From Promethearchaeota archaeon (lineage in GTDB: Archaea; Asgardarchaeota; Lokiarchaeia; Sigyniarchaeales; SOKP01), in NCBI GenBank assembly GCA_019058445.1, contig JAHPZA010000006.1, positions 512,001-576,000 of the forward strand: a stretch of 64,000 bases of DNA, read 5' to 3'. Below the pieces are notes generated by a model that ran no database searches, was not told the origin of the DNA, and saw only the letters and a list, made by a program, of their open reading frames with translations. The position numbers and the translations under genes are program-made. Positions 2,873 through 54,560 of the stretch are shown here, piece after piece (positions within the stretch are counted from its first letter, which is position 1; each line of letters begins with the position of its first letter).

Positions 2873-3037
2873 ATTTTATCCCTAAACTCATAGAAAATTG
2901 AAATTGTGCATTACTTTGCAAACTTCAATTTTAATATAGTGACTATTAAATTCATATAAAAAATTTGGCTTTATATTTTTTTAGTGATTTAATTAAGATT
3001 ATATTCATTATTCACTAATATCTATTTAATAAATTTA

Positions 3038-3805
3038 TTGAATAACAAGGGATTTACGATTAAAATTCACGATAAATTTCAGAAATGTATTGAAAAGGTT
3101 TTTTTTAAAGGAAACTCTACGAAATGGAGCCGAAAGCTCTCATTCATAGTTGGAAACTTATTTTTGATGGCATTTTTGTATAGTTTTCTTATAATGCTTG
3201 TCCTCTACAACTGGACTGGTTCTTTATATCCGGAAGGGTCTGGATATCGCTTAGACTTTCTCGGTGATAACCTAATCCCATTTATACCCGAAATGGCAAT
3301 TTTTTATGTATACTTATTCTTTCCTATGGTAACATTAACACTCATCTATTTTGCATTTATAGACGAAGAAAAGGGATACGCTTTAGGCTGGGCCATAGTA
3401 ATAATGAATCTAATCGCAACCTTTGTTTATATAATATTTCCCGTATCAACCTATTGGTGGAGACAAGAACTTTTAGCTAATAGAATTAAAGGGAACGTTT
3501 TTGCGGAAACAATGTATTTTTATTACGAAAACGAGACTTCCTTTAATTGCTTTCCAAGCATGCACGCAGGGATGTCAACTATGTGTTTTTTTGTGTGGTA
3601 TCAGTATTATAAAATAAAGCCTAATATGAGAAAAAAGATAATCTCAATAGTATCCTTTATCATCGCGGTTGGTACGATATTATCTACACTTTTCGTAAAA
3701 CAACATTATATTGTTGACGAAATCGCGGGAGTTTTACTAGCGTATATTGTTGGTAAATATATTTTTCGTTTGTTCTCCAACTGGGAAAAATCCTTAAAAG
3801 AATAA
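3038..3805 (+). CDS. PAP2-superfamily membrane phosphatase/phosphotransferase (inositol-phosphorylceramide synthase-like)
   Basis: NCFPSMH and STLFVKQHYIVD catalytic motifs; about 6 TM helices. Confidence 0.85.
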   Translation: MNNKGFTIKIHDKFQKCIEKVFFKGNSTKWSRKLSFIVGNLFLMAFLYSFLIMLVLYNWTGSLYPEGSGYRLDFLGDNLIPFIPEMAIFYVYLFFPMVTLTLIYFAFIDEEKGYALGWAIVIMNLIATFVYIIFPVSTYWWRQELLANRIKGNVFAETMYFYYENETSFNCFPSMHAGMSTMCFFVWYQYYKIKPNMRKKIISIVSFIIAVGTILSTLFVKQHYIVDEIAGVLLAYIVGKYIFRLFSNWEKSLKE

Positions 3806-3919
3806 AATCTTACCTTCTTAACCGCGGAAAATTTTAAATTTAAAACTTTACTTTACATTATATCTTATTTTGAAAAAACTTTAAGACCTCAAAATAAGAA
3901 AAAAAGTTTTATAATCGAT

Positions 3920-4080
3920 GCCAAGGTGGCGTAGCCCGGTGAGTGGGAGATTTTCTCTACTTGGGTAGGAACGCACCAGATTCATCGGAATTGCCGATAA
4001 AGGTGAAACTGAAGATCTGGGTATCGCGAGCTTTTGTTGCGATTCGCAACTGAACGCGAATTCAAATCTCGCTCTTGGCA
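3920..4080 (+). tRNA. trnF: tRNA-Phe(GAA) with three BHB introns (3940-3968, 3980-4007, 4031-4060)
   Basis: Removing 29+28+30 nt gives a 74-nt cloverleaf: GCCAAGG TG GCGT AGCCCGGGA ACGC A CCAGA CTGAAGA TCTGG GTATC GCGAG TTCAAAT CTCGC TCTTGGC A. Each intron has a 4-bp central helix and two 3-nt bulges. Confidence 0.93.
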
Positions 4081-4081
4081 T

Positions 4082-6076
4082 TTATAACATTTTCCATTTT
4101 GCCTTTAAATCATCAATTATTTTTTTAGCCTGTATATTATAATTAATTTTTTCGTCTTTTGAAGGATAACCCTTTGCATTTACTTTATACATCAAAATTT
4201 CTTCTATTTCATTGATTATTGACTCTTTACTCACATCATATCCATGCTTTTTACATAATCTTCTTAAATCATCCCGATATTCTTTAGAATAATAAGTTCT
4301 TCTATTGGGATATGTCTTAGATAATTCACTTTCTATTTTTATTCGTTTTTCAGGATCACCTCTACTCTTTAAAACCAATCCAAGAGTTTTTGCTCGATAA
4401 TCCCATTTTCTTGGTTTTATTTCATTGATAAATTTGACTACATCTTTTTTAGATTCTATATGTAATTCATAAGTATTTTCTCTTGTAACAGGATAGATTT
4501 TTCCTGTTTTTATATCATTATTTTCACACATTTTTTTGAAATCCTCCATAAGTGGGTAGGAGGCGTTTTTAAATCCAATGCGGATACAATTGTTTGCTTT
4601 ATGTATATGAAATGAGCCATCAGTATCCACTAATCCCCTTAAACCACGCTTTTGATATTCTTTGTTTTCCATGATCCATTCAGGTACACTTACTTGATTT
4701 ACTTTCTTATCTCCCGGTTTAAGCCCTAAATTAACTAATTCATTGACTATTTCTTTACCATTAATTGTTTGTTTTATCGCATTTGCCTCTTTCGGTTCAT
4801 ATATACTGGGATATTTATTAAATACCTTTTTCATCAAATTATTAATATCTTTTACGTATTCTATTTCTTCTGACTTATTTGTTGTTACTCTAAAACGTTG
4901 TTTATTATGGGGAATACTTCCATCTCCGAGACCAATGCACACCATTTCCGCTGAATCACCATTTTTAGTGAGATTATTAATTTCTTCTATTGTATCTTTT
5001 TCTGAATCATAGTTTTGTCGGATATCTTTTATAATTTCCTCTTGAGTTGTCATTTTACTGTTATCATTTGATTTTTCAATGTTATTTATTCTTATCTCCG
5101 TGATTTTACGTTCTGTTGGTTTATCTTCCTTAATTTCATGTTTAATTTCTTTTCCATATAACTTTTCTAACTCCTTAAAACTAGTAATATCCAAAGAATA
5201 TTCTTTATATAAAGCATTACCAATATAAGTTCCAATTTTTCTACTTATTTGATTATTTGAAATTCCTCTACTATTTAGATTATCACAGACTTGTTTTAAT
5301 TTAGAAGGTTCGATTTGAATTCTGTATTCGATTTCTGATTTGGGTATATTTTCTACTTTAGCAATTTCTCTCCCTATCAAGTTTTCAAGTTTTGCTAAAG
5401 ATTCGTTCTTAATTCCATAATTACGATATAAAACACCCTTGATATCACATCCAATTTGTTCTGAAATTTGTATTAACGTATATCCCTTAGTTCTTAATTC
5501 ACCCCAGACCTTTTTCAAATCATTCTGGTCTAATTTAATTCTTTCATTTTCGTTTTGCTTGTTTTTTATAATTTCTGAACTTTGATTTTCAAGATTTTCT
5601 GATAAATTCTCATTTGCACCTGAAATGTTTAATTCATTTCCTGTATCTTCGATTAAATTTTGATTAGTATCTTGATCTTCGAGCTTATATTCTACTCCTT
5701 TCACAAAATCAATCTCATTACTATTTCCTTCTAATTTATCTTCAATTCCTTCAAGAAAATCTTTATTCGTATCCTTATTTTCTGATTTATCTTCTATTCT
5801 ATCTGTAAAGATCACATCTGTATCTGATTTTTTTGATCTAACACACTCAGGTATAATCGCGACGATATCATATAATTTATCTGTATCTACTGGTTTATCT
5901 TCTATGTTTTCTAAAAAATCTATATTTATGTTATTATCATCTAGCTTATCATATAATTCCTCAATAAACTCCTTCTCATTATCTTGATCATTATTATTAT
6001 CTTCAATTTTTTCCCCATAATCCTCTTTAGAATCTTTGAGATCATCAAGATTTTCGTCATATTCATTGCCAGACAT
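4082..6076 (-). CDS. Free-standing double-motif LAGLIDADG homing-endonuclease-like protein with acidic N-terminus and two HTH-like repeats
   Basis: Motifs AEMVCIGLGDGSI and LRGLVDTDGSF; intein-type LGLKPGDK...VSVPEWI linker; no Hint termini; duplicated ~55-aa unit (LK.V...L...G......IS..IG......LY..Y......LE.L.G.EI). Confidence 0.85.
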   Translation of the reverse strand: MSGNEYDENLDDLKDSKEDYGEKIEDNNNDQDNEKEFIEELYDKLDDNNINIDFLENIEDKPVDTDKLYDIVAIIPECVRSKKSDTDVIFTDRIEDKSENKDTNKDFLEGIEDKLEGNSNEIDFVKGVEYKLEDQDTNQNLIEDTGNELNISGANENLSENLENQSSEIIKNKQNENERIKLDQNDLKKVWGELRTKGYTLIQISEQIGCDIKGVLYRNYGIKNESLAKLENLIGREIAKVENIPKSEIEYRIQIEPSKLKQVCDNLNSRGISNNQISRKIGTYIGNALYKEYSLDITSFKELEKLYGKEIKHEIKEDKPTERKITEIRINNIEKSNDNSKMTTQEEIIKDIRQNYDSEKDTIEEINNLTKNGDSAEMVCIGLGDGSIPHNKQRFRVTTNKSEEIEYVKDINNLMKKVFNKYPSIYEPKEANAIKQTINGKEIVNELVNLGLKPGDKKVNQVSVPEWIMENKEYQKRGLRGLVDTDGSFHIHKANNCIRIGFKNASYPLMEDFKKMCENNDIKTGKIYPVTRENTYELHIESKKDVVKFINEIKPRKWDYRAKTLGLVLKSRGDPEKRIKIESELSKTYPNRRTYYSKEYRDDLRRLCKKHGYDVSKESIINEIEEILMYKVNAKGYPSKDEKINYNIQAKKIIDDLKAKWKML

Positions 6077-6204
6077 TAAAATATCTTCTAAATTTTCATA
6101 TATATAATCCTTGGATTTTTCTTTTCCGATTATGCCCCTTTTCTGTTGAGTAAATAGGGTTATCTAAATACGTGTAGTTTTTAAAATCATAGGTCAAATT
6201 TAAC

Positions 6205-6546
6205 TTGATGTTTAGCTATATGGATTCAGCAGCATTTTATGTATTTTATTTAATTTTAAATTTAGTATTACTCGCGCTCAGTATAGCGCTTTATATATAT
6301 CAAAACAAAAGACAAAATATTTTTAATTTAGATGGACTACTCAGAATTTTACTTATCATATCATCAACAATTTTCATTTTAGATTCTATTCCATACATTT
6401 ATACTGAAGCTGATCAAATTCCTTTTATCAATATCGTTTTTAGTAATATTTTCTTAGCTATTCTATGCACATCAACCATCTTCTACGAGTTTATTATATT
6501 TAGTAAAAAAAGCTGTTTAAAGAGACCATCTGATATGGTTAAATAA
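6205..6546 (+). CDS. Small membrane protein, unknown function
   Basis: 113-aa ORF with 3 hydrophobic segments. Confidence 0.45.
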   Translation: MMFSYMDSAAFYVFYLILNLVLLALSIALYIYQNKRQNIFNLDGLLRILLIISSTIFILDSIPYIYTEADQIPFINIVFSNIFLAILCTSTIFYEFIIFSKKSCLKRPSDMVK

Positions 6547-6574
6547 AAAAATTTACAAATTTAATCTATAATAG

Positions 6575-7213
6575 GTGGATAGGTTATCAATGGAATTTTC
6601 ATTACAAATTAAAAGTTCAGGTGTATCAGAAGATATTTTTAAAGACGTGGAAAAATGGTGCATGTTTTTTAATGGATTTGCGGTAACATTCTTCTTCTAC
6701 ATGAAAATCATATTTGTATTTATTTTATTTTCTATAGGATTTTTAACTCTATTGAAATTAAGGGGGATTTATAAAACAGAAAGAATCAAAGGTACCAAAA
6801 TTGATACCGAAGATGAAAATTTGCTTAAAAAACCTCGATTAATCTTAGGAACTTTTTATATTATGATGGCGTTTGGAATTTTATTCAATTTTTTTACTTT
6901 ATTCTTAATTATCGTCCTTGATCCATTACCAGATAGGTTTATTTTTGATTTAATTAATTTTTCAGGAAAGATTGATCCGAAAGCTTTGAATAGAATACAA
7001 GATTTAAATGCTGCGAAATACCCTCATGAGAAAACTATATACTACTTGGTGGCATTTATCTCTTTAGGTGCTATTTTAGATGTAGTTTTAAGCATATGGC
7101 ATATAATAAACAGCAATAATACGGATCATAGAAAGAGCTTTACACTACTCATGAGTGGAGTAGTCATAGGAATGTTAACGGGGTGGACAACATGTCTGCC
7201 TCTTTTTTTATAA
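6575..7213 (+). CDS. Membrane protein, unknown function
   Basis: 212-aa ORF with 4 hydrophobic segments. Confidence 0.6.
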   Translation: MDRLSMEFSLQIKSSGVSEDIFKDVEKWCMFFNGFAVTFFFYMKIIFVFILFSIGFLTLLKLRGIYKTERIKGTKIDTEDENLLKKPRLILGTFYIMMAFGILFNFFTLFLIIVLDPLPDRFIFDLINFSGKIDPKALNRIQDLNAAKYPHEKTIYYLVAFISLGAILDVVLSIWHIINSNNTDHRKSFTLLMSGVVIGMLTGWTTCLPLFL

Positions 7214-7388
7214 GATAGACTCTAATTCTTTTCAGACATTAAAATATTTAATTAAAAATCCTTATTATTTTAGTTATTTTGTTGATAAAAAAAAAGAAAC
7301 TAGCTATTTATTTACCAATTTTTAGAAAATCTTTTTTAATACTTCTATCTAATTTAATCTTAAGAGAAAATAAAGAGGCAAAAAGTCT

Positions 7389-10355
7389 ATGATTAGAGAT
7401 ATAGATTCCAAAATTCAAAAAATTAAAGATTTTATAAATCGAAATCATTTCAATAATGCTATACGAGATTGTTTATCTATAATTGAGGAACTTCTTAAAA
7501 ATTTATATAAGGATATAAATCTTGATTTAAACTTAGATGAAAGGCAAAAAGCGTTAGATTATGAAAAGGAGAAAAAAAAACAATATCATAAAATGACGAT
7601 TGGAGAATTAATTGGGCTATTTAGAGTAACTGATCTTTTTAAAGCAATTAGTAAAAAATGCAGTACTGAATTTAAATATTTTACACATCAACTCTTATCC
7701 CAGCTTAATGATGTAAGAATTTCGTGTACTCACGATGATTATGCCAGCTCTTTTCATGAAGCAAACTATATTTATTCAACTTTAAGATTGATTTTAGACG
7801 AATTAAATATTTATAAAGGAGTTAAACCTGAAAAAATCTCAATGGATATTCCTAAAGGTGTAGTATCAGAACGTTTTTATAAAGAATTTAAAGAAGAATT
7901 TGATCTTTTATCTTCAAAGGTTGAGATTATTCCGGATAGAATACTTAAAGAATTATCATTTCAAAAACAATCTTTCAAAAATATATCTGATTCGTTTGAA
8001 ATGAATGAATCTATTATGGATACTGAAACTATAAACATTACTAAAGAATTCAATTTAATAAAATTTAAAAAACTAGAAATTTTAAGATTGACAAATTTCA
8101 AAAATGCATATTTTGAATCAAAAAACTTTGAATTAATTAAAAAATTTGAAGATTCACTAATTCTAAACAAGTTTAATGAAGCTAAAGCTACATTAGAGCA
8201 AAATCTTGACAAATTTAATGAATTAGAACAAATAATCTTAAAAGATATTCTATGCACATATAAAGAAGATTATAAAGTCTCAATTGAGCATACAAACAAT
8301 CTGATTGAAAAACTGCCTGAAGCATATTTAGGTTATTTATTTCAATCAAATACTTATTTTGAAATGAAAAATTATAAGAAAGCTATAGAAATCATAAATA
8401 AGATATTGACTGAAAATCCCGACATTGTTCTAATCTTGTTGTGCAAGAGCTTAATTTTAAAAGCCCAAGAGAAATATATTGAAGCTCTTAATACAATAGA
8501 AAAAGCAATAGAATTGAAAAGAGACAGTTATGAATTATTATGTCATAAAGCAATCATTTTAAATCATATGAAAGAATATGAGGAAGCTTCTAAAATTTTG
8601 AACAAAATTATCGAGAGTAATAGCGGTGATATTAATTATGGGTGGATTTATAAAATTTTAACTCGTTCTTATTTTGAGCTTAAATCATTTAATAAAGCCA
8701 TAGAATCCATTGAAAAAGTAATTGAATTTGAGCCAGAAGATTCATGGTCTTATTCAATAAAATCGTACATTTTAAATGAGATCAATAGAAAAGAGGAAGC
8801 CTTAGAGGAAATTGAAAAAGCAATTAACATTGAACCAAATATTTCCCGCTATTATATAAATAAAGTAATTTTATTATATGAAATGAATAAAAATGAAGAA
8901 GCCTTAGAATCGATAAAAAAAGCAATCAAGATTGAGCAAGATAATACCTTTTTGTATTATTTATTAGCCAGGATTTTATTGAGACTTAAGAAAAATGAAG
9001 AGGCCTTAGAATTAATTGAAAAGGCAATCGAAATGGAGCCAGACAATTCCCTTTACTATATAAAAGCACAAACTTTAATAAAATTGAATAGAAATGATGA
9101 AGCTTTAGAAATAATTGAAAAAACAATAGATCTAAATCCTGAAATATCCATTAATTTTTCAATAAAAGCACAAATTTTATCGAAACTTAATAAAAATGAA
9201 GAAGCCTTAAAAATAATCGAAAAAGCAATTGAGATGGACCCTACAGTGCCCTTTTATTATGATACTAAATCAGAAATTTTAATTAAAATGAATAGAAATG
9301 AAGCAGCGTTAGAAGCTATTGAAAAAGCAATTGACATGGACCCTACAGTGCCCTATTATTATGATATTAAATCAGAAATACTAATTAAAATGAATAGAAA
9401 TGAAGCAGCGTTAAAAACTATTGAAAAGGCAATCGAAATGGAGCCTAAAGATTTCTTTTTTCAATATAGAAAATCAGAAGTGTTAATGGAAATGAATAGA
9501 AATGAAGCAGCATTAGAAACTATTGAAAAAGTAATAGAGCTTCAACCAACAGATTCCTTTATATATCTCAGGAAATCAATTATTTTATCATTACTAAATT
9601 TAAACGAGACAGCATTAAAAACAATTGAAAAGGCCATCGAGATAGACCCAAAAACTTCCCTATATTATCTCAGGAAATCAAATCTTTTATCAAAACTAAA
9701 TAAAGGCGAAGGAGCATTAAAAACAATTGAAAAGGCCATCGAAATAGACCCAAAGGATCCCTTATATTATTCTGCTAAGGTTGTTATATTATTAGAACTG
9801 AATAGGAATGAATTGGCTTTGGAAACGATAAAAAAAGCAATAAAGATAAAACCTGAAGATTCCTTAAATTATTTAATTAAAGCAGAAATTTTGAGTAGGT
9901 TAAAAAGATATGAGGAAGAATTAATAGCAATTAATAAAGCTTCAGAACTGGATGCCGATGATCCAGATATTGTGAACCAAAAAGCTTATGCTTTGACAAG
10001 GCTCAAAAGAAAAGGTGAAGCTATTGAATTAGTAAAGAAACTAATTGAACATCATCCCGAAAATGGAGAATACTATGATTCATACGGAGAGATTTTAATG
10101 AAGTTTAATGAATATAATAAAGCAATTAAAACGTTTGAAAAAGCTATTTTAAAATCAGGAGAAGATTCACTTTATTTGAAAGAAACCTTGATCAAAATGG
10201 GTAGATGTTATGAACGATTAGGCAAATTTGAGGACGCTATAAAAAACATCAAAATTGGAAGAATTCTTGCTAAAATAGAAGATGATATAGAATGGACTGA
10301 AAAAGCAGATAAATATCTTTTAAAGGTTAATCAAATAGGAGATATTAAAAATTAA
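7389..10355 (+). CDS. TPR-repeat protein with N-terminal HEPN-like domain
   Basis: N-terminal helical domain with RxxxxH (LNDVRISCTH), followed by about 19 34-aa TPRs (EEAL..IEKAIE.EP). Confidence 0.75.
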   Translation: MIRDIDSKIQKIKDFINRNHFNNAIRDCLSIIEELLKNLYKDINLDLNLDERQKALDYEKEKKKQYHKMTIGELIGLFRVTDLFKAISKKCSTEFKYFTHQLLSQLNDVRISCTHDDYASSFHEANYIYSTLRLILDELNIYKGVKPEKISMDIPKGVVSERFYKEFKEEFDLLSSKVEIIPDRILKELSFQKQSFKNISDSFEMNESIMDTETINITKEFNLIKFKKLEILRLTNFKNAYFESKNFELIKKFEDSLILNKFNEAKATLEQNLDKFNELEQIILKDILCTYKEDYKVSIEHTNNLIEKLPEAYLGYLFQSNTYFEMKNYKKAIEIINKILTENPDIVLILLCKSLILKAQEKYIEALNTIEKAIELKRDSYELLCHKAIILNHMKEYEEASKILNKIIESNSGDINYGWIYKILTRSYFELKSFNKAIESIEKVIEFEPEDSWSYSIKSYILNEINRKEEALEEIEKAINIEPNISRYYINKVILLYEMNKNEEALESIKKAIKIEQDNTFLYYLLARILLRLKKNEEALELIEKAIEMEPDNSLYYIKAQTLIKLNRNDEALEIIEKTIDLNPEISINFSIKAQILSKLNKNEEALKIIEKAIEMDPTVPFYYDTKSEILIKMNRNEAALEAIEKAIDMDPTVPYYYDIKSEILIKMNRNEAALKTIEKAIEMEPKDFFFQYRKSEVLMEMNRNEAALETIEKVIELQPTDSFIYLRKSIILSLLNLNETALKTIEKAIEIDPKTSLYYLRKSNLLSKLNKGEGALKTIEKAIEIDPKDPLYYSAKVVILLELNRNELALETIKKAIKIKPEDSLNYLIKAEILSRLKRYEEELIAINKASELDADDPDIVNQKAYALTRLKRKGEAIELVKKLIEHHPENGEYYDSYGEILMKFNEYNKAIKTFEKAILKSGEDSLYLKETLIKMGRCYERLGKFEDAIKNIKIGRILAKIEDDIEWTEKADKYLLKVNQIGDIKN
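9219..9790 (+). repeat. 102-bp tandem coding repeats (recently duplicated TPR units)
   Basis: Near-identical units start at 9219 and 9321 (gaaaaagcaattga.atggaccctacagtgccc...); another close pair lies near 9611/9713. Confidence 0.85.
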
Positions 10356-10426: not shown

Positions 10427-12367
10427 TTAGCCGAATTGCCTGTAATCTATTGTTTTAATGATATATTTTTCCCCAGTTGCACCATTATTCACTAAAGCAA
10501 ATCGATTTTCTAATTGGGTGATTAATTGTCGTTCCTCGGGGTCTTCAGTAAACAAACTATTATTGGGGTAATCCTCCCGGAAAATAATCTTTACGCTGGG
10601 TTGCGAGGGAACATCTTCAAATAATTGAGAAGGTGATTGGTCTGCAATTATAAACCCAACACCTCTGCTACGATACTCTTTTAACATTTTAGAGAATATC
10701 TTAGCCATTTGCTCTTTCATGATAAAATCGGTATCATCTGGATTTGATGTAATAGGCTTTTCTAAAATCTCATGGGCCTCGTCAATAACAACAACTTGAT
10801 TCAATTTCTCAATTTCGCGGTCTTTTGTCAGCACTCGAATCAATTGAAGAATAGCATTAACGATTAATAATTTAACAAATTTATTACACATACTTAAATC
10901 TAAAAAGATATTCTGTCCATTTATCCAATTCTTAATCCAGGTTGGTAATTCGGAAGTAATACTAAGAGTTTGTTGGATCTTTTTATCATTAAACACATTA
11001 ATTCGATTTTTTAACGCCTGTAAAAAATTGCCCTGCAGATCTTTACCATAGGGATTTTTTCTTATATAGCTCTCAACGCTTTTTAAAATCGTAAGGAAAT
11101 ATGAGGGCATTTTGCCTTGAGTAGTCATAATTGCTTTAGCAGAACTATAGAAAATTTTTTCAAACACATTTTTTAGTCCTAATGAGGCACATAAATAAGT
11201 TGCCAGTTCTTGTAAGTGCTTATCTAATTGCGCACTTTCCCCTTTCACAAAATATGGGATGTTAAAATCTTTATCAGAGAAGCTAATGTGAAGAAAATTA
11301 TTATAATAAATGTTTTGAGATTCTTTTGCAACATTGAGCACTAAAACTCCAATACTATCCGCCTTTTGATTCAATTCTTCAATTAATTGAGCGAGTAGAT
11401 ACGTTTTTCCCGTTCCAGATTTTCCAAAAATTACCATATTTTGAGTTAGTTTGTTAATAGGAACGTAAGTAATATGGTCAGAAACAATCCCATTTTTTAC
11501 ATGAAATCCTATGCTTAAGGAGTTTTTTTTAAAATCTTCATTTATATCAGCATATCGCACAATTTCATCTTTTAATATGGGTAATTTAAGTAAGGGAGTA
11601 TTTTCTGGAAAGTCAAAATCAATTTTAGTTCTATCTAGCCATTTATAATTCTCATGTTCATTTTTAAAAACTGTACCTCTTAAAATATCCGAATAGTCTA
11701 TATCTGAAGGTGTTAATAAATTTGCCCGAATTCTATTCTGATTTTCAATAGCAGTGCATAAGTATTGCAATAATCCTTTTAAGTTCACTACATCATTTTC
11801 ATTTAGGTTCCTTGCTTTATATCTAATGAAAAATCTGAAGGAGAATTTAGGATGCCCAGTGTAAAGATAATCTGATCGTTCAGTTAATTTCTGCCAAATT
11901 GCATAAAGTCGTACTTCATTTCTTCTAGGGAAAAAAAAAGAAGAAATAAACCTCTCAACAATATCAATCTTATATGATAAAATTCCATCTGGAATGATGA
12001 TTTCTTCAATTTCATAATCCTCGTTTTCCTGTAGTGTCTCCATAGTAATTAAATTTGCATGCACCTTGCCGTCTAATCCTATGAATTCATATTTTAGGTT
12101 ATTTAACCAAGTATGACCGAAAACCAGCGCTTCAGTTTTAGAAGATGCCTCTGTAAAAAATTCCCATTTAATATTTTCAGAAGCAATTAATTCAAGTCCA
12201 TAGCTTTTAAATGGAATTGATCCAATTGGATCTAATAAAAATGACCGTACCTTAAGTTCCCCCTCATTATCGAAACCTGGGATATCTTCAGCTTCTTTTG
12301 GTTCAAATGGTTGAGGAACTTGCGTAATTTCAATGCGAGCTTGCCAAAATAAAGTGTCACTTTCCAT
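10427..12367 (-). CDS. HerA/FtsK-superfamily (DUF87-type) ATPase
   Basis: Walker A IFGKSGTGKT, Walker B VVIDEAH, arginine-finger region EYRSRGVGFIIADQSPSQL. Confidence 0.85.
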   Translation of the reverse strand: MESDTLFWQARIEITQVPQPFEPKEAEDIPGFDNEGELKVRSFLLDPIGSIPFKSYGLELIASENIKWEFFTEASSKTEALVFGHTWLNNLKYEFIGLDGKVHANLITMETLQENEDYEIEEIIIPDGILSYKIDIVERFISSFFFPRRNEVRLYAIWQKLTERSDYLYTGHPKFSFRFFIRYKARNLNENDVVNLKGLLQYLCTAIENQNRIRANLLTPSDIDYSDILRGTVFKNEHENYKWLDRTKIDFDFPENTPLLKLPILKDEIVRYADINEDFKKNSLSIGFHVKNGIVSDHITYVPINKLTQNMVIFGKSGTGKTYLLAQLIEELNQKADSIGVLVLNVAKESQNIYYNNFLHISFSDKDFNIPYFVKGESAQLDKHLQELATYLCASLGLKNVFEKIFYSSAKAIMTTQGKMPSYFLTILKSVESYIRKNPYGKDLQGNFLQALKNRINVFNDKKIQQTLSITSELPTWIKNWINGQNIFLDLSMCNKFVKLLIVNAILQLIRVLTKDREIEKLNQVVVIDEAHEILEKPITSNPDDTDFIMKEQMAKIFSKMLKEYRSRGVGFIIADQSPSQLFEDVPSQPSVKIIFREDYPNNSLFTEDPEERQLITQLENRFALVNNGATGEKYIIKTIDYRQFG

Positions 12368-12885: not shown

Positions 12886-14679
12886 ATGGATGATGAAATT
12901 AAAATAATTGAAGTAAGAATTCGTAATTATCGTTGTCTTAAATCAGTAGCTTTAAAACTTGAAGATTTAACAATATTAACTGGTCAAAATAATTCGGGTA
13001 AAACTAGTTTTATTAAAGCCATTGAATCAGCTATTGGAGTTGGGAGTCAAAGATTTACAGAGGAAGATATTTATTTAGCTCAAAATGAAAAAAGACCACC
13101 AAAAGATCGAGCAATTATTGTCGACTTGCTGATACGCCCTTGGAATAGTACAGAAAATAAAGTAATAGATGTCTTTCCTCAAGGGAGTTTTTGGTTAGCT
13201 CTTTGGGGAGATGGAACAGCTCAAGATAAAAATTTTAATGATTTCATTGGAATGAGAACTGAATATAAATGGAATCCTAGAAAAAATGATTATTCTACTA
13301 CTCGAAGTTTTTTAAATGAGTGGAAAGAGGACCTTGAAGAAATTGAGAAAGCAAAAAAAATTGAAAAAGCAGGTGCAATAAATTTTGAAATGATTGAACC
13401 TCTAGCACTTTATTTAATGGATGAAAAAAGAGATATCATAGATGAGTTTAGTAAAAAAACATCTTTTTGGTATAAATTGATTTCAAATCCTGGTTTAAAT
13501 GAAGATCAGATAAAAGATTTCGAAAAAGCATTAAATAATCTTAATCTAAATATAATCAAGGGAAGTTCAGTTTTAAAACATATTTTAGACCATTTAAATG
13601 AATTATATCCAATTGTATCTCATGAATTTGGTAAACCCGAAATATTTCCAATTCCTAGACAATTAGATGATTTGAGTAAAGGAATTGATATCGGAATTTC
13701 AATGAAAAATTCCCAAACATTCTCCCTAACTCGATATGGAATGGGGACTCGAAGTTTGGCAACTATAGTATTATTTAAGGCATATATTACCTTAAAACAA
13801 AAAGAGATGAAGAATAATAAAATGCATCCAATGCTCGCTATTGAAGAACCTGAAAATCATCTGCATCCTCAAGCTCAGAGATCAATATTTGAATTAATTA
13901 AAAAAATTCAAGGTCAAATAATACTTACAACACATTCACCATATATTATTGAATGTGCTAGAATTCAGCAGATTCGTCATTTCCAAAAGATAGACTCAGA
14001 TGTCCAGATTTCTCAAATGAATGTGGAAGATCTCTCAGAAGATGATCTAAGAAAAATAAATTATATGGTGTTAAAAACCAGAGGCTATATGTTTTACGCT
14101 CGAGTATTGATTCTTGCAGAGGGAGAAACCGATGAGAGAGGATTACCTACATTTGCTGAGGAATATTGGGGTAAACGCCTGAGTAATTTAGGTATGGAGT
14201 TTATTGGAGTAGGTGGTGATGGTAATTATCTCCCATTTTTAAGGCTTGCTCAAAGTTTTGGTATTCGATGGTATATTTTTTCTGATGGAGAACCTGAAGC
14301 AATTAATAATGTTAATAGGGCACTTACTAAATTGAATGAAGATATTATTCCCAATAATCCTAATGTATTTGTTTTGCCTAATAATGAAAACTATGAATCC
14401 TATTTAATAAAGTCTGATTATGAAAAGGAGCTTATAGAGATGTATATCAATTTAAAAGGAGAGCAAGCAGAACATAAGAACGCTTTAAAAGATGATTTTG
14501 ACAATAATAGAAAAACATTAGATGATATTCTTCAATATGCTAAGGATAATAAAATTAAGTGTGCAATACCATTAGCTAAAGCAATTTTACATAATACTGA
14601 TGAGAATCTAAGATTTCCTGAAAAAATTCGGTTGCTTTTCGAAAAAATAAGTATTGATTTTAAATTAAAAAAAAAATAA
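12886..14679 (+). CDS. gajA: OLD-family ATP-dependent nuclease (ABC ATPase + TOPRIM), Gabija GajA-like
   Basis: IRNYRCL, GQNNSGKT, GMGTRSL, IEEPENHLHPQAQR, TTHSPY, and TOPRIM VLILAEGETD...SDGE; 12 bp upstream of a UvrD gene. Confidence 0.85.
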   Translation: MDDEIKIIEVRIRNYRCLKSVALKLEDLTILTGQNNSGKTSFIKAIESAIGVGSQRFTEEDIYLAQNEKRPPKDRAIIVDLLIRPWNSTENKVIDVFPQGSFWLALWGDGTAQDKNFNDFIGMRTEYKWNPRKNDYSTTRSFLNEWKEDLEEIEKAKKIEKAGAINFEMIEPLALYLMDEKRDIIDEFSKKTSFWYKLISNPGLNEDQIKDFEKALNNLNLNIIKGSSVLKHILDHLNELYPIVSHEFGKPEIFPIPRQLDDLSKGIDIGISMKNSQTFSLTRYGMGTRSLATIVLFKAYITLKQKEMKNNKMHPMLAIEEPENHLHPQAQRSIFELIKKIQGQIILTTHSPYIIECARIQQIRHFQKIDSDVQISQMNVEDLSEDDLRKINYMVLKTRGYMFYARVLILAEGETDERGLPTFAEEYWGKRLSNLGMEFIGVGGDGNYLPFLRLAQSFGIRWYIFSDGEPEAINNVNRALTKLNEDIIPNNPNVFVLPNNENYESYLIKSDYEKELIEMYINLKGEQAEHKNALKDDFDNNRKTLDDILQYAKDNKIKCAIPLAKAILHNTDENLRFPEKIRLLFEKISIDFKLKKK

Positions 14680-14691
14680 TATTATAAATTT

Positions 14692-16548
14692 ATGACAATT
14701 AAACCCACATTAATTCAAAAAAAAATAATTCAACATGGGGATGGAGCTTTATTAGTCCTTGCAGGACCAGGTTCAGGTAAAACTTTTGTTGTTACAGAAC
14801 GTATACGCCGTTTATTAATGGAATCTAAGGGAAATTTTCGAATACTAGCTTTAACTTTTACAAATAAAGCGGCTAATGAAATGAAAGAACGATTAGCTGA
14901 ATTTCCAAGAATAAATAAGAAAGCATTTATTGGTACGCTCCATAGTTTTTGCTTAGAAGTTCTTGCAAATAGAGGTAATTCAGAAGGATTCAATGGTCTT
15001 CCCATCATTTTTGAATTAATTGAAGATCGTAGAAAGATTTTATCTCAGGCAATTAGAGAAGTTCCAATTTTAGATAACGAATTCAAGCAATTAGAAACCT
15101 CAAAACAAAAACTCAATTTCCTTGATCACTGGCTCGAAGAGATTAGAATTGCTAAAATTAAACTAAAAACACCAGAATTGATAGATGAGTTAACACTAAG
15201 AAATATTTTTGAATCTTATAATGCTTATCTCCGGATTTCAAATGCTGTAGATTTCGATGATTTACTCCTATATACGTACCAAATATTTGAAAAACAGCCA
15301 AAAATTGCAGACTTCTATCGTCGACAGTATCGTTATATTTGTATAGATGAAGCCCAGGATTTAAATGAAGCTCAATATCGAGTAATTACTGCATTATGTG
15401 GTAATTCGTACAAAAATGTTATGATGGTCGGAGATCCAAATCAAGCCATTTTCGAGTGGTATGGTGCGAGTCCAAAATATTTAGAACAATTTAAAGAAGA
15501 TTTTGATGCTAAAGTGATTAATATTGAAGAAAACTTTCGAAGTTCGAGATCAGTCATAGTTGCTGCAAATAAATTAAATCCGAAATATGAAACAGTTGGG
15601 GTTTACCCTATTGAGGGTGAGATAAAATTAATTATAGGTAAAAGTGAAAATCATGAAGCACAGCTTATCTTAAAAGAAATTTCAGAATTATTGGAAAAAG
15701 GTCATAAAGACATAGAAAATCTAGTAGCTCTAAATGATATTGCCATTTTAGGTCGTACTCGCTATGCTCTTTTAGAAATCCAAAATGTATTGGAAAAAGC
15801 TGGTTTAAAATACTATATTTATTTATCTTCTCAACATCAATCAGAATCAAACATTATGAAAGATTTTGAATTATGTTTGAGATTATTAGTAAATCCAATA
15901 GATCAATTGCATGGAGAGATCCTTCTCAAAAGATGGAATCTTGATTCAGACCTTTTTAACAAGAGTTTGAAGTATAAATTAAATTTCTTTAAAATATTAA
16001 ACCAAGAAGTAACTAATCAAAAACATAAAATAGTTATACATGCAATAAAAGAATTAGAATGGACGGAAGAGAATGTTCTTTTCTTAAATGCAATTAAAAT
16101 TTTTGAGGATTTTGCACCTAAATTAACCATTAATGATCGGGAACTATTAATCAATGATATTAATTTATGGAAACAACATTGGGATACTTTTTTAAGAGCA
16201 GATCATGGAGGAGCGCATAAGTTAAGCACATTTTTAAGCCAGATAGCACTGGGATGCACGCAACCAGCATGTCAAGATGGAATTGCTTTATTAACAATTC
16301 ATTCTGCGAAAGGATTGGAATTTAATGTTGTTTTTATTGTAGGGTTGGCAGAAGGTATATTTCCAGATTATCGAGTTAAAACTCGAGTAGATCATGAAGA
16401 AGAATTACGAAATGCATTTGTAGCTATTACTCGTGCAAAACGTTTACTATTTCTCTCGTTTCCTCAAAGAAAAAAAATGCCTTGGGGTGAAATTAGACCT
16501 CAAACTCCATCTAGATATTTAAAAAAGATCGGTTTTAATAAATTCTAA
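14692..16548 (+). CDS. gajB: UvrD/PcrA-like SF1 helicase, Gabija GajB-like
   Basis: AGPGSGKT, LTFTNKAA, IDEAQD, VGDPNQAIF, ENFRSS, TIHSAKGLEF, FVAITRAK; operonic with the OLD nuclease. Confidence 0.85.
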   Translation: MTIKPTLIQKKIIQHGDGALLVLAGPGSGKTFVVTERIRRLLMESKGNFRILALTFTNKAANEMKERLAEFPRINKKAFIGTLHSFCLEVLANRGNSEGFNGLPIIFELIEDRRKILSQAIREVPILDNEFKQLETSKQKLNFLDHWLEEIRIAKIKLKTPELIDELTLRNIFESYNAYLRISNAVDFDDLLLYTYQIFEKQPKIADFYRRQYRYICIDEAQDLNEAQYRVITALCGNSYKNVMMVGDPNQAIFEWYGASPKYLEQFKEDFDAKVINIEENFRSSRSVIVAANKLNPKYETVGVYPIEGEIKLIIGKSENHEAQLILKEISELLEKGHKDIENLVALNDIAILGRTRYALLEIQNVLEKAGLKYYIYLSSQHQSESNIMKDFELCLRLLVNPIDQLHGEILLKRWNLDSDLFNKSLKYKLNFFKILNQEVTNQKHKIVIHAIKELEWTEENVLFLNAIKIFEDFAPKLTINDRELLINDINLWKQHWDTFLRADHGGAHKLSTFLSQIALGCTQPACQDGIALLTIHSAKGLEFNVVFIVGLAEGIFPDYRVKTRVDHEEELRNAFVAITRAKRLLFLSFPQRKKMPWGEIRPQTPSRYLKKIGFNKF

Positions 16549-17225: not shown

Positions 17226-19313
17226 TTAATTTAATGTTTCATAAAGGTTATCATCTAGCTCTTCTAAATACATAGATGCCTCGAGCAAATCATTCCTTCC
17301 ACTGAATCTCGATCTTGATAAAAACAGATTTGTCTTAGCTCTAGTCAATGCTACATAGAATACTCGTCTTTCCTCTTCTAAATCCTCATCTATAGTTAGA
17401 TTTTGGTAGCTTGGAAAAAAACCATTCTCTAACATGGGAAGAAATACATTTTCCCATTCTAATCCTTTAGCTCTATGAATTGTTGAGATAATTAGTTTAT
17501 CTCTATCATTTCCTTTTTTTTCACTATGATATTCACTTTCATTCAAACTTAAATCATTGAGAAACTTACCAATTATTTTGAAATCATTTCCGATTTCAAT
17601 TAATAAATCTATATCATTCAATCTCTCCTGAAAGCTCTCATCATTCTCATTTCTCTTATATTTTTCCTCAAATATATTATAAAATAAAGGAGATTTGATA
17701 AATGAGTTAATTATCATTCCTACACTTCCTGTGAAAGAATAAAATGTTTTCATAATCACGATAATTTTATCGATAGTTTTATCACCTAAACGAGATATTT
17801 TACCTTTCTGCTTAAGTTTAATGATTCTTGCTTTTAGTTCCCTTTTATTGATTAAAAGAGACACTGGATTTTTCGATTTATATATAAGTTCTTCATAGAT
17901 CTTTATTGCATTTGTTTCTCCTAATCCGTAAATATATTTTGTTGCGATTCGTTTCCAGTATCCTTCCGCAAAGACGTCTTTTGGATTATATCTAAACGCT
18001 AGAAAAGCCAATAAATCACGTATATGAGCTTTCTCAAATAAAGAACGCCCTCCTCTTACTTCGAAAGGAATCTTATTTTCTGTTAATTTTATCATTAATT
18101 TATTAATATAATATATTTCCTCTCTGTTACCTCGTAGCGATCTAAATAATAAAGCGATTTCCCCATAAGGTTTTCCCTCTTGATGTAATTTTATAATATT
18201 TTCAAGAAGCCAATTTATTTGTTCTTGAAAGGTTTCTGCTTCAAATAACAAGGGCTTCATTCCAGATTCTCTATTAGAACGCATGTCCTTTTCATATCGA
18301 AAATAATTATTTTTAATAGAGTCATTTGCTAAATAGAGGATTTCAGGTATACTTCGATAATTCGTAGTTATATTATATTGTGTACACCCATAAAAGTTCG
18401 TTTGGAAGTTTAGAAAGTTCTTGATATTAGCTCCTCTAAAAGCATATATGGATTGAGCATCATCTCCAACAACCATTAAGCAAGATTTTTCATTCAGTTT
18501 AGCTAGTTTTGTAATTATCTCATTCTGAATAAAGTTAGTATCTTGATATTCATCAACTAAAATATATTTATATCTTTTGGCAAACTTCTTAACACTCTCA
18601 AAATCTAATAATCTACTCCAAAGTATAAGCAAATCATCAAAATCTATTTTTGAAAATTTTTTTTTTATATCTTTATATCTTTTATTAATTTCCCTAATTT
18701 GAGAAAGAAATCCTTTAAACTCTTGAAAACGCCAATCTATTGTTTCAGCAAGATCTCTATTACAATTAGCAGAACTACTAAGGACCTCTTTTATGTTTTT
18801 AGCTTTAGGAAATTTCTTCTTAATCTCTTGTAATAGATCATCTTCTTTATCTGGATGAATCACTAAATATTGTGGATTAGATATTAATTCATCTCTACAT
18901 GCATCATCAATACATTTATTAATTAAATCCCTTGCTTTACTCTCATCTAAAATATCATATCTTCCATATTTTAACATACCCTTGAAACGTTTCAGAAAAA
19001 CTGTATGAGCAATACTATGGAATGTTCCTGCTGTAATGGAAGGCATAAATCCCAATAATTTTTTCACACGTCCTAACATCTCCTCTGAGGCTTTATTTGT
19101 AAAGGTAACAAGCATTATCTGTTTAGGTGATACATCCATTTCAATTAACTTAGCTACACTATAAGTAATTGTCCTTGTTTTACCAGAACCTGCACCTGCT
19201 AAAATAAGCATTTTACCCCTTAGATTATTTACAATCTTTAATTGTTCCTTATTTAGTTTATTTTCATAATGTATCTGTTTTGGCTTCATTTTTAGCGATC
19301 TTGTCAATTCCAC
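17226..19313 (-). CDS. UvrD/PcrA/Rep SF1A DNA helicase
   Basis: AGAGSGKT, VTFTNKAS, VDEYQDTN, VGDDAQSIYAFRGA, NYRS, STIHRAKGLEW, EEERRVFYVALTRAK. Confidence 0.92.
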   Translation of the reverse strand: MELTRSLKMKPKQIHYENKLNKEQLKIVNNLRGKMLILAGAGSGKTRTITYSVAKLIEMDVSPKQIMLVTFTNKASEEMLGRVKKLLGFMPSITAGTFHSIAHTVFLKRFKGMLKYGRYDILDESKARDLINKCIDDACRDELISNPQYLVIHPDKEDDLLQEIKKKFPKAKNIKEVLSSSANCNRDLAETIDWRFQEFKGFLSQIREINKRYKDIKKKFSKIDFDDLLILWSRLLDFESVKKFAKRYKYILVDEYQDTNFIQNEIITKLAKLNEKSCLMVVGDDAQSIYAFRGANIKNFLNFQTNFYGCTQYNITTNYRSIPEILYLANDSIKNNYFRYEKDMRSNRESGMKPLLFEAETFQEQINWLLENIIKLHQEGKPYGEIALLFRSLRGNREEIYYINKLMIKLTENKIPFEVRGGRSLFEKAHIRDLLAFLAFRYNPKDVFAEGYWKRIATKYIYGLGETNAIKIYEELIYKSKNPVSLLINKRELKARIIKLKQKGKISRLGDKTIDKIIVIMKTFYSFTGSVGMIINSFIKSPLFYNIFEEKYKRNENDESFQERLNDIDLLIEIGNDFKIIGKFLNDLSLNESEYHSEKKGNDRDKLIISTIHRAKGLEWENVFLPMLENGFFPSYQNLTIDEDLEEERRVFYVALTRAKTNLFLSRSRFSGRNDLLEASMYLEELDDNLYETLN

Positions 19314-19863: not shown

Positions 19864-21174
19864 ATGACTAATTGTGAAGAATTGAAAAACATAGTAAATA
19901 ATCCAGATGAAGAAAATTTAAAAATAGAATTTAAAAATTCACACATATTGAAAACAAACAAGGGTAAGAAGAAAATTGCAAAAGAGATTGTCTCATTTGC
20001 AAATAAATACGGGGGGAAATTAATTTTAGGTATTAATAAAGATAGATCGTTTGAAGGAAAGAATATATTTAATGTTGATATTGATAAAGGGAAAATTGTT
20101 GGGATTATTAGAGATAGAATTAGTCCTAATTTAAATTGTGAGATTGAATTTTTACCTTGTATTGAAGGTGATGTAATAGTCATAAATACACCAAAAAGAA
20201 AAGATATGCCTAATGCTGTTGTTAAAAAAAGTGATGGAAAAATAATAAATAGAGGATATTATACTAGAACTTCTCATGGGATAAGAGATGTTTCAGATAA
20301 AGAATTACAATATTTATTTAAAGAAGAAAAAATCAATTTTTCATACCCCTTTAAAATTGTTATTAATTACATAAAAGATTCTTTAAGAATTCCTCCATTA
20401 GGTCTTGAAAGCCCTTCATGTATTAAACAATATTATTTACCTCTAATAGAAAAAATACCAAATGAGATTCTCGAAAGTATTAAGAGTGAATTCGATGATA
20501 AATTTCGATTTTTTATGGAAATCACCCCTTATATTTTACTTATGTCATTCACTTTTTATTTTAAATATTCCTGGTTAATAGAGGTTAAAAGACATAATGG
20601 TCAAAGAAGTAGTAGAGCAATTTCTACAAATGTGCCAAAGAAAAGAATTCAAATTAATGAATTACCAACTCTCCCTAATGATTCAATATTATCTAAATTC
20701 TCAATTGATATTAGGGAAATTTTAGATGAGGTGAGTTTCCGGGAATTTTTTATCCCTATTAATATGGATTTAAATATTTTTAAAAAAAAGACAGTTGGTT
20801 ATGAAATAATAATGGAACATGAAGATTTTAAATTTATTATCTCTTTTAATTTTGATATGTGGGGATTAGGTCTTGATCAATTACATCCACGAAGAGCTAC
20901 TTATTTAAATCAATATTTATATGAAGGAAAAGAAAATATTAATGATCAATTTGAACATATTCAATTTGATTGTAAATTTAATACGGAATTTAAATTTCCA
21001 GAAAATAATCCCGAATTATTTGATAATTTTTATCACTATGCGAAAACAATTAAAGATATTCTTCTAAATGAATGGGATTATCAAAAATATATAAAAAAAT
21101 TACCTCATCATTTACTCTATTCGATTGATTTAAAATTAAAGGATATCTCAAATTATTTACAAAATAAAAAGTAA
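19864..21174 (+). CDS. AlbA_2/Schlafen-core domain protein with unknown C-terminal domain
   Basis: EENLKIEFKNS...IAKEIVSFANKYGGKLILGI...YYTRTSHG. Confidence 0.85.
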   Translation: MTNCEELKNIVNNPDEENLKIEFKNSHILKTNKGKKKIAKEIVSFANKYGGKLILGINKDRSFEGKNIFNVDIDKGKIVGIIRDRISPNLNCEIEFLPCIEGDVIVINTPKRKDMPNAVVKKSDGKIINRGYYTRTSHGIRDVSDKELQYLFKEEKINFSYPFKIVINYIKDSLRIPPLGLESPSCIKQYYLPLIEKIPNEILESIKSEFDDKFRFFMEITPYILLMSFTFYFKYSWLIEVKRHNGQRSSRAISTNVPKKRIQINELPTLPNDSILSKFSIDIREILDEVSFREFFIPINMDLNIFKKKTVGYEIIMEHEDFKFIISFNFDMWGLGLDQLHPRRATYLNQYLYEGKENINDQFEHIQFDCKFNTEFKFPENNPELFDNFYHYAKTIKDILLNEWDYQKYIKKLPHHLLYSIDLKLKDISNYLQNKK

Positions 21175-34800: not shown

Positions 34801-35088
34801 ACTTTACATAACCTTGGAGGGGCTTATTATAAGGTTGGTAATCCTGAAAAAGCAATGGAAAAAATTAAAGCATCTCTTGAGATTCGAGAACAAATAGGAT
34901 ATCAAGAAGGTATAGCAACTTCATGCCAGTGGATTGGAGAATTGTTAGCTCAAAAAGATATTGAAGAAGCTATAAAATATGGGGAGAGAGCGGTAAAGAT
35001 ATATCAACAATTGGGCCTCAAGGAAGAGGAATCATCCTTGCGAAATTATATGAAGGACTGGGGAACTCAATCTAAATTATCACAGTGA
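31831..35088 (+). CDS. TPR - SIR2-like (SIR2_2) - TPR protein
   Basis: About 11 N-terminal TPRs; FLVGAGIS, PNLIH, LTTNFD, LKLHGS, VVLGYSGSDDFDI; C-terminal ~40-aa TPR repeats. Confidence 0.88.
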   Translation: MTNPKKALKWKNQGIAFYDDKKYDKAIEAFKKSLSFDENDASTWNNISTVYTELKEYDNALEALKNAININPNYSIAWRNICNIYIILEDYENLIYSCNKYLEINPNDVEIWNTLGRAFYFNYYYEKAIDAYKKALELAPMDATLWQNLALACGHKGSIEDAIIAYKKSLEINPNEAENWYNLGVAYGMINNLEDQVQAYAKALEIYPDNASAWYNLGNTYGRMGKHDEAINALEKAIKLNPNHNYAWVSLAIAYEGKKEYDKAIEAYIKSLELSPDEYRAWNALGKLYDEIEEYDKAIEAYQKAKDLNVNDIDILNSLGVSYYQKDDNDNAIKTFLNILTLDGEYDSAWYNLGLIYEDLEEYDKALQAYKKASEIAPDDIDHWNKIIEIIIKKNLPSEVIEKLKQEIDAQNVSAAIESLSLLFEQGYLKEAPIILKDSDYFKTNPQEYLRSLFLDKEKYTFLVGAGISMNPPTNLSSAMGFVEGLIKVCTPENEAKNLLSSELFKYEMLIGFVKDIMDRELTLMDYFDLATEPNLIHMFLAHAILQGHNVLTTNFDYCIEIALKRILPKEKHSNIIPIISKKQYLDHSNPRELIEAGKYPILKLHGSKKNLISGENTFDSLVTTIADLGMARDKGETFAIEPFKSPAINATIREQTLVVLGYSGSDDFDIIPLLQEVTNLKKLIWIDHTNEDDIKIEIITKDSQMGKKLSKVETFLSDMSTYVPYEIVKITSPTISLTENYLFPQIVPNVSLEDNRKLLTKKALSYPRFEKWVADLPVFKKISELDKLYFACYLYSMKKDLKSMLRSSEKGLQIIEKKGKKKNDKLKSVFLTFLGHAYKDQGNLDLAFEKFKESLEIAKKIGDIYTIQILLNHIGQVLFEKEKYDEALTYYEDAKDISDQFNDLEGKLWVLTNFGMIYNAKGEYDKSLESFEEALEISEQIGDLDKKGTILNNIAFLYEIKGQYEIAIEKFELALKIDEKLNNFLGISNTLHNLGGAYYKVGNPEKAMEKIKASLEIREQIGYQEGIATSCQWIGELLAQKDIEEAIKYGERAVKIYQQLGLKEEESSLRNYMKDWGTQSKLSQ

Positions 35089-51311: not shown

Positions 51312-51316
51312 ATTTT

Positions 51317-53485: not shown

Positions 53486-53641
53486 ATTTTTTTATTTTTA
53501 AATAATCAAGAGTATAATTTAATGGTCTAAAAATCATCTAACGTTTTTAATACTAACAGTAACATAATTTATTTATTTTTAAAAGAAAACCAGATATGAA
53601 TTGAATATTAAATTTTGTTTTAATTAGACTAATCAATGAAG

Positions 53642-53684
53642 GGACATATTGGTCATGGAACGCTTCTTATGTGATTTCTTGTAT
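53642..53684 (+). pseudogene. Degenerate copy of the iolM segment GHSGHGTFPNVISCM
   Basis: GGA CAT ATT GGT CAT GGA ACG CTT CTT AT- GTG ATT TCT TGT AT; begins at the codon where the 30-nt insert sits. Confidence 0.75.
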
Positions 53685-53694
53685 ATTTACTTCA

Positions 53695-54477: not shown

Positions 54478-54560
54478 CTTTCGTACAAATTTTTATAAAA
54501 AATGAATTGAATTCAAACTATTTGTTTAAAGTTAAAAAGAAATTAGAATTTATAAATGCG

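Follow-up and report, generated by a model that had tools for sequence, protein, structure and literature searches.

Why does a gene for a LAGLIDADG protein lie one base away from a transfer RNA gene that carries three introns, and is it the source of those introns? The locus that raises this question sits in a stretch of 64,000 nucleotides (nt) from a Promethearchaeota archaeon (positions 512,001 to 576,000 of contig JAHPZA010000006.1, assembly GCA_019058445.1), henceforth referred to as the window, in which a tRNA-Phe(GAA) gene (3920-4080, plus strand, 161 nt) meets a free-standing gene of LAGLIDADG homing-endonuclease type (4082-6076, minus strand, 664 amino acids (aa)). The initial annotation had described the two genes as arranged tail to tail, and this observation was correct because a single base, 4081, separates the end of the tRNA gene (4080) from the stop codon of its convergent neighbour (4082-4084). 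For the reasons set out below, we consider it probable that the neighbour is a free-standing LAGLIDADG homing endonuclease gene with a fixed slot just 3' of the single-copy tRNA-Phe gene. Throughout, G000 denotes the genome of the window, other G numbers denote genomes, L numbers loci, and P numbers database proteins with their metagenome contigs.

In Pfam, residues 478-553 of the 664-aa protein matched LAGLIDADG_3 (PF14528; E=9.5e-11) with a score of 42.3 bits, the cut-off being 22.5, and neither a Hint nor an intein domain was detected. Together with the motifs read from the sequence, this bears out the description of the gene as a double-motif gene that lacks a Hint domain and does not lie in an intron. 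The two motifs are GLGDGS, with D385 (codon 4922-4924), and LVDTDGS, with D486 (codon 4619-4621), and two alignments, of 16 and 18 members, show no variation in either Asp-Gly pair. They belong to a conserved module (residues 375-664; 4085-4954, minus strand) that consists of the double-motif core and a helical C-terminal extension of ~100 aa, itself strongly conserved among members. About 20 database proteins of 372-515 aa from Lokiarchaeota/Promethearchaeota assemblies match these last 290 residues at 53-61% identity, one of which carries the annotation LAGLIDADG family homing endonuclease. An AlphaFold2 model based on the family alignment, with a predicted local distance difference test score (pLDDT) of 92.4 and a predicted template modelling score (pTM) of 0.91, displayed the order of elements expected for a two-domain LAGLIDADG saddle. 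The top Foldseek matches to the model were I-Tsp061I (E=3.6e-9), I-DmoI, the TliVMA endonuclease and PI-PfuI (E=3.6e-9 to 5e-7), aligned over ~190 residues with a TM-score by target of about 0.7 and with the helical tail left unmatched; a phmmer search of PDB sequences with the full-length protein gave no useful match. Overall, the motifs and the predicted fold indicate that the protein encoded at 4082-6076 is of the monomeric, double-motif LAGLIDADG homing-endonuclease type and would be expected, like such enzymes in general, to cut DNA at a specific long target (about 20 bp) and leave 4-nt 3' overhangs.

The part of the protein that precedes the conserved module is less uniform. Residues 1-185 (5522-6076, minus strand) form an acidic, low-complexity region that is poorly conserved, and other members have a similar acidic or lysine-rich leader. 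Residues ~190-330 (5087-5509, minus strand) contain two helix-turn-helix (HTH)-like repeats of ~50 aa that were present only in the G000 copy among the orthologues aligned, and paralogues match the query in this repeat region (residues 238-331). DNA binding by the repeats is something we can only infer, because a single-sequence fold of residues 180-372 gave a pLDDT of 43.5 and was not interpretable. G000 carries a single copy of the gene. A second LAGLIDADG_3 protein is encoded outside the window (G000:C6:705360-705590) in a 691-aa frame with a long acidic leader and without a tRNA gene downstream. The nearest homologues outside the orthologue group are 36-41% identical and lie within host open reading frames (ORFs) of 600-1400 aa; we read these as inteins. 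At L005 (G006:C12), a 37%-identical LAGLIDADG domain occurs within an 827-aa frame and is followed by sequence resembling a TFIIB cyclin repeat, which is probably an intein in a transcription factor B gene.

The position of the gene was the same wherever it was found. Seventeen distinct orthologue loci were examined, and in each of them the gene converged on the 3' end of tRNA-Phe, leaving a gap of 1 to ~80 nt; the adjacency is therefore not due to chance. The lineages that bear the slot are genera g1, g2, g3, g4 and g11 together with metagenome contigs. The association was read from G000, G011, G019, G024, G148, G095, G150 and G128, from remnants in G125 and G135, and from the metagenome contigs of P0002, P0003, P0004, P0005, P0006, P0007, P0014, P0017 and P0018. 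The P0011 contig has the same arrangement but is cut off at the 5' end of its tRNA and was kept outside the 17 loci. The orthologue group is monophyletic with respect to the paralogues (support 96/98). None of the remaining LAGLIDADG genes in G000 lies against a tRNA gene, and only one tRNA gene in that genome has such a neighbour. At L009 (G003:C183), a free-standing, 40%-identical paralogue abuts a two-intron tRNA-Thr(GGU) gene with zero gap, from which it appears that this LAGLIDADG lineage may target tRNA flanks more broadly. At the same locus, the start codon of the paralogue is 149 nt away from an interrupted tRNA gene of 137 nt whose anticodon is CAU.

In a survey of 135 genomes of the host family and 25 genomes from sister families, in which E<1e-70 was taken as a clear match, the endonuclease was found in seven of the 135 (five genera), with remnants in three more, and in none of the 25. 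The species-representative genomes contain four intact copies (G000, G148, G011 and G024) and six damaged ones. The G095 copy contains an in-frame TAG, the G150 copy a frameshift, and the G019 copy is truncated at its 5' end such that motif 1 is gone; in G135 (G135a) only the last 109 codons are left, and in G125 an internal deletion of 1.28 kb leaves the last 44 codons. In G128 (L085 2841-5144, G128:C78), the slot is taken by two PD-(D/E)XK genes (Pfam PDDEXK_5), one of which begins with the leader of the LAGLIDADG family and the other of which ends like the N-terminal part of P0002. Also in the slot, arranged in tandem, are a fragment of a LAGLIDADG tail and another LAGLIDADG gene of 44-48% identity, so that different nuclease modules seem to have replaced one another at this site on a shared scaffold.

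The comparison of filled and empty loci shows directly that the endonuclease is inserted or lost as a single gene. At L074 and L076, it is the sole insert between tRNA-Phe and the ancestral neighbours of the latter, which lie directly 3' of tRNA-Phe in G015, G023, G013, G021 and G009. Similarly, three collinear g2 genomes, with flanks that are 88-92% identical, contain a filled slot (G148), an internally deleted copy (G125) and an empty slot (G035). The gene is thus its own intergenic ORF that behaves as a single-gene insertion or deletion and is sporadically distributed with decayed copies, as in free-standing homing endonuclease genes. Judged by sequence, this series of filled, decayed and empty alleles represents the stages through which a free-standing homing endonuclease passes.

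The tRNA-Phe gene beside which the endonuclease lies was missed by ARAGORN and Rfam in its unspliced form, in runs over both the window and the genome that also overlooked most other tRNA genes, and ARAGORN accepted its product once three inserts were removed. The exons (3920-3939, 3969-3979, 4008-4030 and 4061-4080, plus strand) sum to 74 nt, with CCA not encoded, and the spliced tRNA forms 21 of 21 cloverleaf pairs. For splicing, we used a script that looks for bulge-helix-bulge (BHB) motifs with a 4-bp central helix and two 3-nt bulges and cuts after the second bulge base; filtering of splice combinations by ARAGORN only was too permissive, in that many wrong combinations were accepted. The script forces a 74-nt product, and because of this it produced artefacts for L074, L076, L075 and G020 and no solution for G019; these five alleles were settled by eye. 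In the window, all three inserts have the features of BHB tRNA introns: each has four of four central pairs and two 3-nt bulges, and the product is canonical. Their outer helices are weak (0-1 bp) and their inner helices are 2-7 bp long. Among listed RNA runs, none contains this DNA. Intron 1 (3940-3968, plus strand, 29 nt) interrupts the D-loop at 19/20, with a 4-bp central and a 7-bp inner helix, and has orthologues in other genomes, to which pre-tRNA positions 1-110 align at 74-85% identity. Intron 2 (3980-4007, plus strand, 28 nt) lies in the anticodon stem at 30/31, where its central helix is formed from nucleotides of the D-stem and anticodon stem, and many alleles without an endonuclease contain the same intron. 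Intron 3 (4031-4060, plus strand, 30 nt) lies in the T-arm at 53/54 and has the central helix CGCG/CGCG.

Three further observations concern this tRNA gene in other genomes. In three g11 genomes (L100/G068, L116/G084 and L117/G085), tRNA-Phe is a fully uninterrupted 74 nt, and congeners have up to four introns. In G019, the tRNA-Phe beside the truncated endonuclease (L004 1327-1488, G019:C20) begins with GTAAAGG, which creates an A3xG70 mismatch and a U2-G71 wobble, and a search of that genome with the exact 5'-exon pattern gave no second copy of tRNA-Phe. In sediment runs X2 and X4, short contigs matching the window at 3998-4030 pass from the anticodon-arm exon straight into the T-loop and acceptor end with a different T-stem, which points to a co-occurring relative whose tRNA-Phe is without the 53/54 intron.

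The T-arm of tRNA-Phe was found to change together with the endonuclease cassette. Between G125 and G035, identity is 88% in the upstream flank, 85-86% in the 5' part of the tRNA and 92-95% in the downstream flank, and falls to only 58% in the T-arm, where the T-stem is GCGAG in one and GAGGG in the other and the intron lies at 53/54 and 59/60, respectively. Since the T-arm is so divergent between well-conserved flanks, the T-arm and the cassette appear to constitute one recombination block. The G000 tRNA is likewise a mosaic: its 5' part is closest to alleles without an endonuclease (82-86%), and its T-arm is closest to those of the endonuclease-linked loci G148, G125, L074 and L076 (83%; next best 73%). 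A joint origin of the G000 endonuclease and T-arm from the G148 clade did not hold up, the position of G000 in the protein tree being unresolved. Within the g2 trio, whose flanks are 88-92% identical throughout, the T-arm and its intron change along with the cassette. This fits co-conversion of the intron-bearing T-arm, which would bear on the suggestion of the initial annotation that the endonuclease spreads introns by co-conversion. This suggestion finds support insofar as the T-arm and cassette behave as a block, and fails insofar as the block swaps or moves an existing intron and adds none.

The more far-reaching part of that suggestion was that the short BHB introns are immunity marks which destroy the recognition site of the adjacent endonuclease, that repeated invasions would spread and accumulate them, and that this would explain both the three introns of tRNA-Phe and, more generally, the gain of short, ORF-less archaeal introns. 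We compared 81 tRNA-Phe alleles with an assembled 3' flank, of which 17 were linked to an endonuclease and 64 were not; the p-values given here are uncorrected for shared ancestry and for about five tests. The mean number of introns was 2.53 (n=17) in linked and 2.30 (n=64) in unlinked alleles (Mann-Whitney p=0.43); the predicted correlation is absent, and the endonuclease is excluded as the source from which introns in general arise. Introns in the T-arm were present in 12 of the 17 linked and 47 of the 64 unlinked alleles, and those in the anticodon arm in 11 of 17 and 37 of 64 (Fisher p=0.77 and 0.78, respectively). The distribution of introns in these two arms thus does not track the endonuclease, and a role as immunity marks is unsupported. 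Intact endonucleases are found beside alleles without a T-arm intron (P0006 and P0018), and these two loci broke the rule that an intact endonuclease always lies beside a T-arm intron, which had been true for the first six loci. Nor is an origin of the three introns in successive invasions supported, as alleles with three or four introns were also found in genomes where the endonuclease query gave no match: four-intron alleles occur in G015 and G013, two genomes that are 96-97% complete and in which the endonuclease query found no homologue. In G000 itself, tRNA interruption is genome-wide, with the Rfam tRNA model reaching threshold in only 16 places in 4.6 Mb, of which only ~5 are of uninterrupted length, and this agrees with the heavy interruption reported for Asgard tRNA genes (bioRxiv 10.64898/2026.10.13.758758); one endonuclease at one tRNA gene therefore cannot be a general route of intron gain.

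What speaks for immunity and accumulation is, in the first place, that no linked allele lacks a D-arm intron or has fewer than two introns. D-arm introns (15/16 or 19/20) were present in 17 of 17 linked and 50 of 64 unlinked alleles (Fisher p=0.034) and at least two introns in 17 of 17 and 49 of 64 (Fisher p=0.032), both values being subject to the lack of correction for ancestry and multiple tests. The block movement of the T-arm and its intron with the cassette in the g2 trio would also fit. In collaborative homing, free-standing endonucleases and ORF-less group I introns are known to work in this way, in that the endonuclease targets the insertion site of an intron that protects its carrier and is co-converted (PMC3984707, PMC2790892). 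Moreover, a motif-free census of Asgard tRNA genes, which puts the mean at 2.2 intervening sequences for each gene and finds them at BHB motifs, repeatedly gained, often in the D-arm and overlooked in annotation, states their arrival to be open; no general arrival route was found, and homing endonucleases were outside its scope (bioRxiv 10.64898/2026.10.13.758758). Set against this are not only the absent association with intron number and with T-arm or anticodon-arm introns, the intact endonucleases beside alleles that have no T-arm intron and the highly interrupted alleles where the endonuclease query found none, but also the orthology of the D-arm and 30/31 introns of G000 with those of the endonuclease-less congener G006 (85% identity), the single G000 tRNA gene with such a neighbour although most tRNA genes in that genome are interrupted, the exchange rather than addition of introns by block transfer, and the uncorrected p-values. 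We therefore regard immunity and accumulation as unlikely; the excess of D-arm introns is its only remaining trace, and a weak one, and the three introns of the G000 tRNA-Phe are ordinary for the lineage and not caused by the endonuclease. In a narrower form, which we judge doubtful to a similar degree, endonucleases at the tRNA 3' flank would be vehicles that move BHB-intron tRNA segments, with D-arm introns protecting the carriers. The D-arm positions 15/16 and 19/20 are five bases apart, on either side of a stretch sized like a LAGLIDADG cleavage centre. If true, the spread of protein-spliced archaeal introns would for the first time be linked mechanistically to a selfish element acting at the DNA level.

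Two other explanations concern the gene rather than the introns. The gene could be the tRNA-proximal end of an integrative element or defence island with tRNA-Phe as its attachment site, as in G000 a stretch of ~40 kb (4081-43930) lies between tRNA-Phe and the genes that are directly 3' of it in the congener G009, and G019 has ~8 kb inserted at the same place. Defence-type genes in the stretch would suit such an island. They include a HerA-like ATPase (10427-12367), a Gabija-like pair (12886-16548) consisting of an OLD-family ATPase (12886-14679) and UvrD (14692-16548), a Schlafen AlbA_2 protein (19864-21174) and a SIR2-TPR protein (31831-35088); a second UvrD (17226-19313), an IS66-like fragment (21550-22968) and assorted metabolic genes are also present. 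However, Pfam detected no integrase or recombinase among the ORFs of 6205-43816, there is no direct repeat of the tRNA 3' end (matches to the tRNA within the window are of at most 15 nt, which is chance level), and the endonuclease is the sole inserted gene in L074, L076 and G148. No gene of the island recurs at other endonuclease loci, and because the cargo does not recur, the island is a separate insertion distal to the endonuclease and not its vehicle. With neither an integrase nor shared cargo, we rejected this explanation as very improbable. Alternatively, the protein could have been domesticated, with a host role as a DNA-binding regulator or a maturase-like helper for pre-tRNA-Phe, and no longer be mobile. 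LAGLIDADG proteins can evolve maturase or regulatory roles, the core and C-terminal extension are strongly conserved over deep divergence, and the G000 copy has gained HTH-like repeats. Against this, the gene is found in only ~10 of the 135 family genomes, it has decayed repeatedly and is cleanly absent from close relatives with an equally interrupted tRNA-Phe, both catalytic Asp residues are kept in all members, and the removal of BHB introns is the task of the tRNA splicing endonuclease and involves no maturases. Domestication thus appears to us no more credible than the island, and we attach little weight to it.

We therefore favour a selfish, free-standing homing endonuclease gene that occupies a fixed slot at tRNA-Phe. 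In the mechanism that we propose, the enzyme would cut endonuclease-less alleles in or near the conserved 3' part of the tRNA-Phe locus, and repair of the double-strand break would copy the cassette of ~1.3-2 kb from a filled allele. The repair tract could reach into the tRNA gene, as a result of which the adjacent T-arm with its intron would be co-converted. After fixation, the gene would decay and be lost, which would give rise to the patchy distribution. The fold, the catalytic residues, the fixed position, the single-gene insertion and deletion, the decayed copies and the linkage of the T-arm to the cassette are features of the data, whereas it is by inference that we hold the enzyme to cut DNA, place its target and give the transfer a direction. 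Several results weigh against this mechanism. The filled locus L077 and the empty locus G135b have the same T-arm haplotype, and co-conversion of the T-arm is thus not obligatory. The members are deeply diverged (53-64% identity), with long branches and a basal polytomy in the tree; no recent transfer was caught, so that vertical descent with many losses is a possible history. The conserved 100-aa C-terminal extension and the purifying pattern could reflect a host function. Finally, no empty-site variant of the strain was found in three further sediment metagenomes of the same study; among contigs of four sediment runs over 2900-7400 there was no joint that skips the endonuclease, coverage being fragmentary outside the likely source run.

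The initial annotation had drawn a parallel to the iolM locus of the same window, where it saw the same layout with an unrelated putative nuclease. The iolM homologue (50100-51308 plus stop) contains an in-frame stop within an insert of ~30 nt, and a convergent ORF of 722 aa ends at 51317. The parallel holds for the convergent gene beside an insert-bearing host gene and for the unrelatedness of its protein, which has no similarity to the LAGLIDADG protein, and the nuclease label is putative, Pfam having found HTH domains only; the analogy is therefore one of geometry. Following iolM, ~7.7 kb is absent in G015, where a 272-aa gene follows directly (window 50100-59046), and a second copy of the last ~40 iolM codons lies at 54552-54671. 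The iolM homologue is one of the ancestral downstream neighbours of tRNA-Phe, which in G000 are found ~40 kb away as a 176-aa gene (43933-44463), a 340-aa gene (44536-45558) and then genes that begin at 48763, 50100 (iolM) and 59046. On the 5' side of the tRNA, a PAP2-family gene (3038-3805) is absent at this position in the congeners G002, G006, G004 and G009, where the tRNA has a 257-aa gene at a distance of ~260-340 nt; there has thus been an insertion on the 5' side as well.

Overall, the locus provides a natural series of filled, decayed and empty alleles in Asgard genomes of the Lokiarchaeia type. The free-standing homing endonucleases of phages and organelles have been studied in detail; a probable case from an archaeal chromosome is added here, and the locus makes one route of intron arrival, transfer by co-conversion, directly testable. 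It also carries a caution, in that adjacency does not account for the intron load of these tRNAs. Relative to the Asgard census, in which no general route was found (bioRxiv 10.64898/2026.10.13.758758), the locus would represent one concrete way for an existing intron to move between genomes, and the tRNA-Phe alleles compared here contain 0-4 introns at positions 15/16, 19/20, 22/23, 30/31, 37/38, 51-54 and 58-60.

The literature searched yielded no account of a LAGLIDADG lineage on an archaeal chromosome that has a fixed homing slot next to a single tRNA gene. The closest analogue appears to be SegB of T-even phages, which, according to the account in PMC13096335 (citing PMC2330249), is a free-standing endonuclease that is associated with tRNA genes, cuts within them and causes the tRNA region next to it to recombine and to be inherited preferentially. 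As far as that account goes, SegB and the endonuclease described here share a free-standing gene beside tRNA and the presumed co-conversion of adjacent tRNA sequence. They differ in that the enzyme here belongs to the LAGLIDADG and not the GIY-YIG family, resides in a cellular archaeal chromosome rather than a phage, and is tightly and convergently abutted to a single isotype, tRNA-Phe, that contains BHB introns; it is also known from sequence alone. As in collaborative homing, an intron-bearing segment appears to be transferred in a block with the cassette; in contrast to it, the introns here are protein-spliced BHB introns, several per gene, with no position exclusive to endonuclease-bearing alleles, and whereas collaborative homing targets the insertion site, the distribution here does not favour such a target for two of the three arms. 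With I-DmoI, I-Tsp061I, PI-PfuI and the Tli VMA intein endonuclease, the protein shares, in its predicted structure, the monomeric double-motif fold with a catalytic Asp in each motif. Unlike these enzymes, it is encoded outside an rRNA intron or intein, with a start codon of its own, an acidic leader and, in G000, the HTH-like repeats, and unlike the matched structures it has the helical C-terminal extension of ~100 aa.

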